A stretch of 64,000 nucleotides of DNA from Candidatus Hydrogenedens sp. (GCA_049968235.1 JBMFRC010000001.1:64001-128000), one strand, 5' to 3'. Positions 53,923 to 61,533 are shown, counted from the first letter of the stretch. Made by a program: numbers and translations. Notes: generated from the letters alone by a model not told the origin.

Positions 53923-56900
53923 TTAATCCTCCTCATATCGGGCTGTGGGCACGCTCCTTTCATATATAACACTTGCTCTTGCTTCTGATTGAACAACAAA
54001 TTCGTCATTTGTCCGATAGCTATAACAACCGTCATTATTTCCATCTACACCGTAACCTAACTGTACCAGTGCTGTTATTTTGAAGACATCGGACCGTAGA
54101 CTAACATGGTCTGCAACAGATTCATATCTCGGGAGAACATCTGCTATCCTGCCGTTATAGTTTGTATTTACACTTAAAGGTAATAGATATTTAGAATTGA
54201 TTGTATTTGCAAGTTCTATGGGTGACAAATAATAGCGACCATCCGCATATTCCGGACGGTTTGTCATTAATAGATAAGATAATTGGAAAGCAGATAAAAT
54301 TGTGTCACTTACATTGTCAGCATAAACGGCATTGGTTGGTGGAATTGGGTTAACTCCATAAACAGGATTATTCAGGTCTTGATTTTTAGGGAGGATATTT
54401 GACCTATAATAGAAGCCTGGTAGACACATGGAAGATGCGAATATTCTCTTCTGACTTCCATCTGTATAGATATAGGGTCCGATGGTATTTACATTAATTT
54501 TGTGAAGGGAAGATTTCGCAGGGACTAAAGTAATATGTGTAAGAAAACACGGAGTATCACCTATGTTTCTTACTCGCAATGCTACAAATTTTTGTGTAAC
54601 TCGAACCATCTGGGGCTGCCAGCTGGCTGCGGCTTGCTGCCCATATAATATTATACCATCTTCATTCGGAGAAAAGTCAACAACATCTTCGTAATACCCC
54701 CCAACTTCTGTCCGATACCAGTCATCTGGATGTGTCAAACCTGTCTCAATTGTAGAACCTCTGGGCTTTAATCCTCTTGCTTTTGCAGGGTCTGTAATTA
54801 TTTCAAGAGCCAATCGTACCCTTGTTGTGTCATATTCTTTATTAATCCATAATTTGCCAAATTCTTGAGAGAATAATTCGTAAGGTGGATTACCCGAAGC
54901 ATGTAGTTGTTCATCATATTGTTGTAGTCGTCTTAATTGTTTTTCATTTACTACATTAATATAGACATAATAATCTCCATTTTCTAATCCATCATTAACA
55001 TCCCATACGAACAGTGCCTCAGGACGATTTTGTTCGGGATAAACGCTTCTATAACTACTTACATAGGCAAAAATGCGTTTAGGAATTTCCCATCGCTGAG
55101 CAATATCATTAATGTCTATTTGAGGTCTACCAAAGGCACTGTTGTTATTAAATAACCAACTGCCATTAGGTTGTGCATTGAATAAAGTGTTATATGGTGT
55201 AGGAAATGTTCCATTCCATAATGAGCCATCAACAAATCGGGGATAATTATATATTTCGCCTGGAAGCATAAATAGAAATAATGGGACCCATGCCTCAGGA
55301 TAGGTATTGCTGGCTAACTCACAGCGTAGTATATCTGTAAGGTTCGAACCGGAAGGGAAAACATCTGTTTCCGCAGGATTAGGTCTTATCGGAATAAAAT
55401 CTGCGGTTCCGACAGTAAGGATTTTTTCTGCTATTGTTATCATTGAAGAAGCACCCTTCAGAACTCTGCTTAATTCGTCCTTACCTTGAAGTTGACAGGC
55501 AAGGACATTTGCACTTGTCCATACCTGACGCCAGAATGTTTCACCTCCAACAACGGGATACAACGTTAAGTTCTGACGGTTTAAATCAAACAAGTATCTG
55601 TAATCTGGATTTGGGAATACCTGCCTTAATCGGTATAAGGAGTATAAGTATTCTCTCTGGATTGGTATTCCAACCTGGCTTAATGTCCCTGTATAGATTG
55701 TTCCTACATCTCGCCTCTGTTCTATATTCCAGTAAGGATACAATAGAGTGATGCTCCTGCCATTAATTACAGGAGAATCAGGTAAGGAGACGATTGGGAA
55801 TGAAAAATCTTTTCCTGATAGAGCAATTTCTGTATACGATTTGCCTAAGGGTGTCCCTCGATATGTATTGACAACAAAATCAATGTCCCTCTTATCACGA
55901 TAGGGATTATTATTCGTATACTGGAACAACGGGAAATTATTGGGTGCCACATTATCCAACATAACCAGTACGAGTTGTTCCAGATAGTGAGGTGATTCTT
56001 CCCAATCATCATAGAATCCATCTGTTGCCTCCCAACGGTTCGATAATCCAAAACGGTCTCCACTTAATTCTGGACTCTTGCGATTCAGGGAACGATAGAA
56101 ATCCCATAACATACAATCGGGTATCCACCAGGAAGAAAAATCGGCATTTAATTGCATACTACTATTGGGTGCAGGAAGTATGTCATCGATACAGCGGTTT
56201 ATAACATCATATTCATTATAAGAAACTCCATCTACCTGATTACCCTTAGTATCATATAAAGCCACGACGACACAATCGCCGGGATTCCATCGTCTTTCTA
56301 CAAAATATTTCCATTGGGGAGGGTCGTTGTCTGTTCCGAAGTAAGGCTCTATAAGATTGGGATTGCCAATATAATTGAACCCTGTTGTTATATTAATAGG
56401 TTGAACCTGGTCGTAAGGGTCAGTTATAAAGTCAACATCTACATTTCCTCCTATAACAGACATGTCTTTCAAATGGAAAATCGGCATCATACCTTGCTCA
56501 TAAGACCCATATCCATAAACCCTACCGTTAGTATAGGTGGTACCAGGTTCTACTCTACCTTCGTCAACTCCTTCGTTAAAGAAAACATTTAAAGGATTAT
56601 TAAAATCTGTCGGTCTATCGTCAATAACACCGTTTTGATTATTATCCACACCATCTTTTTCCAATGTCCCTAATATATAACTTCCCATACCTGTTAAATA
56701 ACCACCATCTCCATCATTGTCGTATCCATCATGCTCTGGATAATCCGGTAACATGCCTCCTTGCAGGACCAATTTAGCAAGGTCATTTAGCGTGGTTATT
56801 TCTTCTGTTTTTCTGCGTTCTGTATTTTCTCCATCAATAAGCGGAAACTCAACAGCATATAATGGGACAATCCTATCCCATGCTTTTCTGGGTCCAACTA

Positions 56901-61533: not shown

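Follow-up and report, generated by a model that had tools for sequence, protein, structure and literature searches.

A probable GspK-family minor pilin of Candidatus Hydrogenedens with a split lamin-tail domain and acidic loops nested inside its pilin fold

The subunits at the tip of type IV filaments decide what these filaments bind and how their assembly starts. Genes of the minor pilins I, J and K stand in a nearly universal synteny (PMC13533445). The small beta-sheet of the K subunit is completed by a final strand. PilY1 or MshQ can supply this strand in trans; in GspK, in Com pili, in PilK homologues of the Vibrio cholerae type IVa pilus (T4aP) and in CpaL it is supplied in cis (PMC13533445). 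Once K has folded, its recognition by the I-J pair licenses polymerisation (PMC13533445). According to a proposal made in 2026, assembly is licensed by just one C-terminal beta-strand, whether it is given in cis or in trans (PMC13533445). GspK of type II secretion systems (T2SS) carries an alpha-domain inserted in its pilin beta-sheet, and modular pilins, with additional modules grafted C-terminally, are common, the most extreme example in a 2021 survey having 860 residues (PMC8179133). Our present results describe a protein of 2536 residues, encoded at 53923-61533 on the minus strand of a 64,000-nucleotide stretch of DNA from Candidatus Hydrogenedens sp. (GCA_049968235.1, JBMFRC010000001.1:64001-128000), the whole of which is called the window here. 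Very probably this giant is a minor pilin of the GspK family, in which long segments are inserted, one within another, into the pilin fold.

The open reading frame (ORF), proposed already in an initial annotation of the window, is complete and codes for a protein of 285.8 kDa with isoelectric point (pI) 4.5, placed at the K position of a cluster of pilus genes. The cluster lies entirely on the minus strand, to which all coordinates below refer. Compared with the ~330 residues of a usual GspK, the giant is ~8 times longer and has ~2,200 extra residues; it is ~3 times the size of the 860-residue modular pilin (PMC8179133). Self-BLAST found no internal repeats in it. A word-indexed homologue search yielded 30 full-length relatives of 2100-3300 residues, whose named carriers are all metagenome-assembled genomes (MAGs) of Candidatus Hydrogenedens or Hydrogenedentes; rerun with the family alignment, it added zero further homologues. 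An exhaustive profile search with the N-terminal 1130 residues as query returned 1176 proteins at E <= 1e-3, of which 131 reached E <= 1e-30; over 100 of its matches are 50%-identity clusters of 2000-3400 residues. With one genome per species searched, the gene was present at 26 loci, titled Hydrogenedentota bar a few bins of "uncultured Nitrospirales". Species-representative MAGs titled "uncultured Nitrospirales/Nitrospiraceae" that carry the family are L010, L013, L021, L028 and L030; such titles are probably an artefact of taxonomic labelling. Conservation spans the whole length of the family alignment. One member is named "PilX N-terminal domain-containing pilus assembly protein" by NCBI, the remainder "hypothetical". 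Literature searches on pili of Hydrogenedentes or Hydrogenedentota found nothing relevant, and a search for a lamin-tail domain (LTD) linked with a pilin subunit found no paper in the library searched.

The first 100 residues (61234-61533) form a GspK-specific module, recognised in the family alignment, in an AlphaFold2 (AF2) model, by hhalign and by NCBIfam. A short basic leader ending at the invariant G7 is followed by the hydrophobic helix alpha1 and by a 'HPxATSxDHxW' segment. The protein starts with MRKPETG and continues with AALVLAIGIIAILLAIGFTF, which gives it a leader ending in Gly, a hydrophobic helix of ~20 residues and Leu, not Glu, at position +5. GspK/PilX tip subunits typically lack Glu5, a residue that both neighbouring pilins, I and J, possess and the giant does not. 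The GspK-like N-terminus claimed in the initial annotation is thus present, and its helix is conserved in all homologues, with G7, A9, L20 and F27 invariant. The NCBIfam GspK model (NF037980) matches the N-terminus only (aa 6-69, E 0.0079), and Pfam PilX_N matches 2 of 18 family members.

Similarity to GspK is not limited to this module. A GspK reference profile of 29 sequences and 341 columns was compared by hhalign with column subsets of the family alignment, in which residues 1-100 matched it with a probability (Prob) of 97.2% (E 4e-11). The C-terminal part, aa 2325-2376 plus 2410-2536, matched GspK columns 202-327 when taken alone (Prob 87.4%, E 3.7e-6), and a helix-free construct, composed of this C-terminal part and aa 612-660, gave Prob 84.1% (E 7.5e-6). 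A concatenate of aa 1-100, 612-660, 2325-2376 and 2410-2530 aligned to GspK columns 1-320 of 341 (Prob 96.7%, E 4.1e-10). Controls stayed far below these values: ten column-shuffled C-terminal alignments reached Prob 0.1-0.3%, four other internal pieces of the giant 0.1%, and the neighbouring I and J pilins, which have the generic pilin helix in common with it, 0.3-1.9%. The N-terminal and C-terminal matches are collinear with GspK and cover both halves of the profile. Hallmarks of Escherichia coli K-12 GspK can also be followed by eye along the giant, namely 'RG-AAL' without Glu5, 'L-N-x-D...D-H-x-W', 'I-x-D-E-x-x-K-V-N-L-N' (aa 640-650), 'K-I-N-V-N-T' (aa 2345-2350) and, in the terminal strands, 'RSDVFKI...' and '...ASVIYER'.

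A beta-strand of GspK, marked by the signature 'D-x-x-x-K/F-x-N-L-N', is located at aa 612-660 (59554-59700; ITHTGEPVCDLVGRMAVYIEDESKKVNLNIAGG), where it aligns to GspK 'DxQxxFNLN' and where G626, E627, P628, G634, R635, D642 and N650 are invariant; its 'DESKKVNLN' strand lies ~510 residues beyond the N-terminal helix. The C-terminal module, aa 2325-2530 (53944-54561), is composed of 'THITLVP..KINVNT', a helix-hairpin-helix (aa ~2411-2476) and a terminal beta-hairpin (aa 2483-2495 and 2512-2525, '...ASVIYER'), between the strands of which lies a conserved DxNxDG loop (aa 2497-2502). An AF2 model of aa 2140-2536 (22 sequences; pLDDT 68, pTM 0.59) contains a jelly-roll, helices at aa 2411-2476 and the long terminal hairpin. 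Several family members terminate right at the conserved '...VYER' strand; together with the conserved hairpin that the protein keeps of its own, this argues for closure of the pilin domain in cis. Extension of the GspK alignment into aa 840-1010 is of low confidence. That region ('NVNYTTPQQLA') was considered as a duplicate of the C-terminal unit of INVNT and helix-hairpin-helix, and rejected, as its hhalign probability was 1.5% with that unit and 1.9% with GspK.

The initial annotation pictured an adhesin anchored by its N-terminal pilin helix. This picture has to be changed: since the C-terminal ~200 residues are of the GspK fold as well, the extra modules appear as insertions inside the pilin domain, and since the 'DESKKVNLN' strand lies so far past the helix and a GspK match ends the chain, the pilin domain is, judged from these alignments, discontinuous and not N-terminal. 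The giant resembles GspK/XcpX (PF21687 and PF03934; NF037980; solved as GspIJK and XcpVWX) in its helix without Glu5, its 'DxxxxxNLN' strand, its 'INVNT' with helix-hairpin-helix and its terminal strands '..F.I...' and '..(I/V)Y.R', all collinear, as well as in the position of its gene after I and J and in having an extra domain inserted within the pilin fold. It differs from GspK by a second insertion after alpha1, by ~1,660 residues with LTD and jelly-roll at the position of the SAM-like half, by its sub-threshold scores with curated models and by the surrounding machinery, which is T4aP-like and not T2SS.

Insertion A (aa ~101-610, ~510 residues; 59704-61233) separates alpha1 from the first GspK beta-strands and contains acidic motifs M1-M5; family and fold searches with it were without match. 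Insertion B (aa 661-2324, ~1,660 residues; 54562-59553) stands where GspK has the first, SAM-like half of its alpha-domain; there, GspK profile columns ~121-200 are unmatched and the flanks align. Additional acidic motifs lie within insertion B, together with the split LTD, a strongly conserved block and a jelly-roll. The conserved block, aa 1800-1850 (55984-56136; DFYRSLNRKSPELSGDRFGLSNRWEATDGFYDDWEES), lies just past the last LTD strands and is the most conserved of the family, with mean column identity 0.76 and the consensus DFYRSLxRKxPxxxGDRFGxxNRWEATDGxYDDW; no known family matched it in the Pfam scan. The jelly-roll, a beta-sandwich of carbohydrate-binding-module (CBM) type at aa ~2172-2339 (54517-55020), is predicted in the AF2 model.

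An LTD was placed by the initial annotation at ~57150-57500. The block in question is present, EYIEITNISNNPIDLTGYTIEIG...RLLLTF at aa 1375-1438 (57220-57411), and profile scores identify the LTD as genuine; what did not hold is its extent, because in place of one contiguous block of ~115 residues it forms three pieces spread over aa 1084-1790 and interrupted twice, by insertions of ~261 and ~303 residues. Piece 1, the first strand, is at aa 1084-1104 (58222-58284; GVDSIRITELMVRPVRRVEAE, 'SIRITELMVRP...'), with I1090, E1092, M1094, V1095, R1096, R1099, R1100 and E1104 invariant. Piece 2, the core matched by PF00932 and including the block just mentioned, is at aa 1366-1440 (57214-57438), and piece 3, the last strands, at aa 1744-1790 (56164-56304; FVERRWNPGDCVVVALYDTKGNQVDGVSYNEYDV, 'WNPGDCVVVALYD..G..VDGVSY'). 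Against the Pfam LTD model PF00932 (profile length 109, gathering cutoff 34.3 bits), the contiguous match of aa 1370-1439 is significant yet below cutoff (28.9 bits, E 1.5e-6), and a scan of aa 1362-1786 gives 33.2 bits in two stretches, the second being piece 3, still under cutoff. Spliced together, the three pieces cover profile positions 8-108 of 109 and score 43.2 bits (E 5.9e-11). Of 7 members spliced in this way, 6 reach the cutoff, one of them exactly at 34.3 bits; unspliced, the LTD matches 16 of 18 homologues. In the native sequence the domain remains under threshold because it is split by the insertions, and an LTD can be missed or score too low in this way. The giant's LTD thus departs from the usual one in being interrupted and embedded in a pilin. 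The insertion between pieces 2 and 3 (aa 1441-1743, ~303 residues; 56305-57213) itself carries four acidic motifs, DYNGDG (1518), DGYDNDGDGG (1602), DGVDNNQNGVIDD (1627) and EGVDEGR (1654), and the nesting is therefore three levels deep.

Shorter relatives of this architecture exist. With the family profile, three proteins of 1386-1602 residues were found, among them P0161 and P0163 with E ~1e-25. Each of the three matches NCBIfam GspK below its curated cutoff, one at both ends; Pfam T2SSK is present in all three, above cutoff in two, and the LTD is present as well. The hidden Markov model of the family's C-terminus matches their C-termini on both sides of the T2SSK match. More broadly, P0135, P0137, P0158, P0161, P0163 and P0167, of 1200-1600 residues, have PilX_N or GspK ends and an LTD in the middle, with weak matches to Verru_Chthon cassette protein A and acid_disulf_rpt; an LTD inside a GspK-type pilin therefore occurs also in this shorter form, from which insertion A is absent. 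The model of cassette protein A (TIGR02600, with 1296 positions; cassette proteins B, C and D accompany it) is also large, spanning ~1,300 positions. The shorter relatives match it weakly at the N-terminus and in the NLN region, and the J neighbour of the giant matches cassette protein C. The giant itself gave no match to TIGR02600 at E <= 0.01 and, by this sequence comparison, is not a member of that family.

Segments of the form D-x-D-x-D-G-x-x-D were described by the initial annotation mainly for 60240-60700. Their numbers were compared with 2000 shuffles of the giant. Strict D-x-D-x-D-G is present in 4 copies (aa 281, 283, 763 and 1605; 0.10 expected), the full D-x-D-x-D-G-x-x-D in 2 (aa 283 and 763), one of which falls within 60240-60700. 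When Asn is tolerated, [DN]x[DN]x[DN]Gxx[DE] has 6 copies against 0.09 expected (about 60-fold enriched), four of them (aa 283, 323, 387 and 416; 60288-60687) in the named range, where the strict form had been overestimated and the enrichment as such is borne out. A related pattern, [DN]Gx[DN][DN][DN]x[DN]Gx[IVL][DE] (typically DGxDN[DN]x[DN]Gx[IV][DE]), has 4 copies and was absent from the shuffles. The cluster of acidic loops at 60253-60693 consists of DVDLDGDGYKD (281-291), DGLDNNLNGLIDE (320-332), DGLDNNCDGIVDD (384-396) and DWNADGIID (416-424), kept in 16, 15, 15 and 12 of 18 homologues, respectively; motif M11, in the insertion internal to the LTD, is kept in 17. Calcium ligands of DxDxDG loops follow a pattern of D/N at positions 1, 3 and 5, Gly at 6 and an acidic residue at 9. 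This ligand-type pattern is kept in 12-18 of 18 diverse homologues at eight sites, and at least 10 acidic loops of [DN]x[DN]x[DN]G type are conserved across the family. With such conservation the acidic motifs are more than an effect of chance or composition.

The resemblance of these segments to TSP3, dockerin or EF-hand sites, suggested at first, did not survive Pfam and NCBIfam scans: no EF-hand, TSP3, dockerin, FG-GAP or MopE model is significant on the giant, the best scores of calcium families being EF-hand_1 at E 1.7, Cu-binding_MopE at E 2.9 and acid_disulf_rpt (acidic double-disulfide repeat) at E 0.36-1.8. DVDLDGDGYKD, which we take to be similar to an integrin or FG-GAP-type DxDxDGxxD loop, is likewise matched by no model. 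It could be, then, that the motifs do not bind calcium at all and present degenerate, cysteine-less remnants of the "acidic double-disulfide / MopE-like" kind, or conserved turns, and the shorter relatives indeed match acid_disulf_rpt, if weakly (E 4e-5 to 4e-3). We hold this to be unlikely, at perhaps one chance in a few, in view of the preserved ligand-type positions and of the very acidic character of the giant, and as GspK and XcpX are themselves calcium-binding proteins with two to three sites, the dissociation constant of XcpX being 26 uM (PMC6211770). Calcium binding by the giant is plausible; since no calcium-domain model matches, the case for it is made at the level of motifs.

The genetic context agrees with the pilus setting supposed in the initial annotation, in that the gene occupies the GspK/PilX slot of a type IV filament cluster, directly following genes of I- and J-type pilins. 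The I-position pilin (141 residues, 63378-63803) has a GFSILE prepilin motif; it aligns by residues 17-133 to positions 3-119 of 132 of NCBIfam XpsI (22.1 bits, cutoff 150) and has further sub-cutoff matches to PilV (23.8 bits, cutoff 52.2) and Pfam N_methyl (17.3 bits, cutoff 21.2). The J-position pilin (61640-63427, motif GMTLIE) is oversized with 595 residues, counterparts in relatives having 410-603. Its N-terminus matches Pfam N_methyl above cutoff and, weakly and below cutoff, the NCBIfam models of Verru_Chthon cassette C (E 4e-7), HpsC and GspJ; its globular part is without family match. Beyond the giant, in the order of transcription, follow a 1973-residue protein, a PEGA/FGE-sulfatase protein, a PilM homologue of 696 residues (44180-46270; PilM_2 domain at aa 15-350), two small genes at the PilO and PilP positions (43212-44183 and 42690-43202) and a PilQ-like secretin of 1085 residues (39420-42677), identified by Pfam, with N-terminal TPR and a P/G/Q-rich linker. 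Past PilM_2 of this homologue, a membrane segment is predicted and a long tail rich in Gly, Pro and Gln is present; both suggest a fusion of PilM with PilN.

The same gene order is found in the orthologous contigs L001, L003 and L004, at 88%, 29% and 27% identity. These add upstream a pilB gene, a 369-residue ATPase, a second pilB, pilC and two pilins of ~290 residues; the 369-residue T2SSE protein lacks the MshEN domain and is PilT-like. With pilB, the PilT-like ATPase and pilC in place, the machine is T4aP-like with a retraction ATPase, and not a classical T2SS. This bears on the idea that the giant caps a T2SS-type endopilus in the periplasm or secretin vestibule, where its insertions would be no surface adhesin but a platform or piston acting on secreted substrates. 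Such a role would suit the closest profile, that of T2SS GspK, and closure in cis as in T2SS (PMC13533445), a size that argues against passage through the secretin, and the large secreted protein encoded next door. It is nevertheless improbable: beside the T4aP-type set of PilM_2, PilO/P-position genes, PilQ-like secretin with TPR, PilT-like ATPase and two PilB-like ATPases, the cluster has no full Pfam match to GspC, GspL or GspM (a weak T2SSL match in the PilM-like protein has E 0.0019 and 18.1 bits, cutoff 25.5), and closure in cis is also the mode of the V. cholerae T4aP and of the Com pilus (PMC13533445).

The 1973-residue protein (47998-53919), which has a Sec signal and lies directly downstream of the giant, takes the syntenic slot of PilY1/MshQ. 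In having K after I and J and a large protein downstream like pilY1 or mshQ, the locus resembles those of T4aP PilX/PilK with PilY1/PilC or MshQ (PMC13533445; PMC7541494); the difference is that in PilY1 systems it is PilY1 that provides PilK, in trans, with its last beta-strand, whereas the giant retains a conserved C-terminal hairpin of its own. Counterparts of the 1973-residue protein at L003:19482-22499 and L004:12462-19784 have 1005 and 2440 residues, and the three are alike only over the last ~350 residues (22-26% identity). No Pfam match to the PilY1 beta-propeller (PF05567) was found in the giant or in the 1973-residue protein, and BLAST detected no similarity between these two. The 1973-residue protein is a possible tip partner, and the C-termini ...EEQRIKMFQRE (1973-residue protein), ...PPIKANSRP and ...GKQQIILREE (counterparts) could each donate a beta-strand to the tip complex.

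Streptococcus sanguinis PilB (vWA) and PilC (lectin), CofB of enterotoxigenic E. coli and Thermus ComZ are likewise pilins with grafted functional modules, which the filament displays, probably at its tip (PMC8179133); these proteins carry one or two modules, mostly appended C-terminally, whereas those of the giant are nested inside the fold. Were the giant built as PilB is, its N-terminal helix, or a small module, would be the anchor and all else an appended adhesin. That the N-terminal module gives the strongest single signal, that C-terminally grafted pilins are so common (PMC8179133) and that an LTD with CBM-like modules would suit an adhesin all speak for such a layout, which we still judge quite improbable: even with the helix left out, the last ~200 residues of the giant align with the C-terminal third of GspK (Prob 84-87%, controls 0.1-0.3%), several family members end at '...VYER', and a GspK strand follows 510 residues past the helix. 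In layout the giant is closer to CpaL/TadG of Tad pili (~600 residues; PMC13533445), in which an N-terminal minor-pilin-like domain is followed by a large middle and by a C-terminus completing the pilin sheet in cis. CpaL/TadG belongs to the Tad/T4c pilus class, and its middle has ~470 residues against ~2,200 in the giant. By analogy, the giant would combine the cis closure of GspK and CpaL with a display function like that of PilY1 or MshQ, and be related to PilB, CofB and ComZ.

We propose, as the probable explanation, that the giant serves a type IVa-like pilus machine as its K-position minor pilin (GspK/PilX/PilK family), a tip subunit displaying ~2,200 residues. Prepilin peptidase would cleave it at G7; its own C-terminal hairpin would then return to the N-terminal strands and close the small pilin domain in cis, in the manner of GspK in T2SS and of CpaL in Tad pili. 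Once folded, the K subunit would be recognised by the I-J pair, filament assembly would be primed, and K would end at the distal tip. In the GspIJK structure, the inserted alpha-domain of GspK caps the filament. Insertions A and B would emerge at or next to the site of this domain, so that the ~2,200 extra residues, with LTD, CBM-like jelly-roll and calcium-stabilised acidic loops, would form a binding head exposed at the tip of the pilus. For an adhesive function of this head, which is argued by analogy, we see about even chances. With its PilT-like ATPase, the machine could retract the filament and so pull on the target bound by the head. That the giant belongs to no filament and is an inner-membrane-anchored periplasmic or envelope protein derived from a pilin gene is very improbable: a missing Glu5 fits a subunit that need not dock under another, and the extreme size would fit too, but the former is usual in GspK/PilX tip subunits, strict I-J-K synteny is kept in a complete pilus cluster down to ~27% identity, and both halves of the pilin fold are conserved.

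Several observations weigh against the proposed tip subunit, to which the silence of the calcium-domain models should be added. NF037980 scores 15.8 bits on the giant against a curated cutoff of 130, and Pfam scans of the whole protein and of isolated segments gave no match to T2SSK (PF21687/PF03934) or PilX_N (PF14341). A profile of the full alignment met only chance matches among PDB sequences (Nsp15 at E 0.22) and no GspK. The AF2 model of aa 1-1130 (11 sequences) has pLDDT 44 and is credible only for helix 5-68 and a few strands; a Foldseek search with it returned noise (E >= 2.7). Packing of the C-terminal hairpin on the N-terminal strands would follow from collinearity, and is not seen in a model. 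A subunit of 286 kDa is hard to square with passage through the secretin, the downstream 1973-residue protein could be the real adhesin, and all carriers of the giant are uncultured.

On a more tentative note, the tip initiator (PilK/GspK) and the tip adhesin may have been merged, across Hydrogenedentota, in one chain of ~290 kDa by nested insertion, with closure in cis and a covalent, load-bearing link; we rate this a little below an even chance. The order of nesting would be pilin fold, insertion B, LTD and acidic-loop module, from outside to inside. If true, the filament would be joined to its adhesin covalently, in place of the non-covalent strand of PilY1, and a retractile pilus could pull a large multi-module head bound to polymers or other cells. 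The family would also be an extreme natural test of the rule of strand licensing in cis or trans (PMC13533445), as a T4aP-type machine with a retraction ATPase, in which K keeps its cis strand yet carries ~2,200 inserted residues. For the uncultured phylum Hydrogenedentota, the proposed tip subunit offers a first functional handle on a conserved giant gene that had been left unannotated.

Among the remaining genes of the cluster, the PEGA/FGE-sulfatase gene (46525-47922) codes for three PEGA domains and a formylglycine-generating-enzyme-like (FGE-sulfatase) domain, according to Pfam; its product is a probable lipoprotein, and the gene is kept within the pilus cluster in all three diverged loci. 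The FGE target motif C/S-x-P/A-x-R was looked for in the giant, where one SGAGR that does not look conserved was seen, and in its neighbours, where none was convincing. Tandem DNA repeats at 40792-41114 in the secretin gene, with periods 21, 27, 42, 45 and 69 and a local GC content that rises to 0.447, encode a low-complexity GGYGGGMYGGG stretch of ~130 residues. A Kdo transferase gene adjoins the cluster, which fits a diderm envelope. Elsewhere in the window, at 18383-23284, an unrelated ORF of 1633 residues combines a PKD domain with a full-length PhoPQ-activated pathogenicity-related domain (PF10142, E 8e-100).

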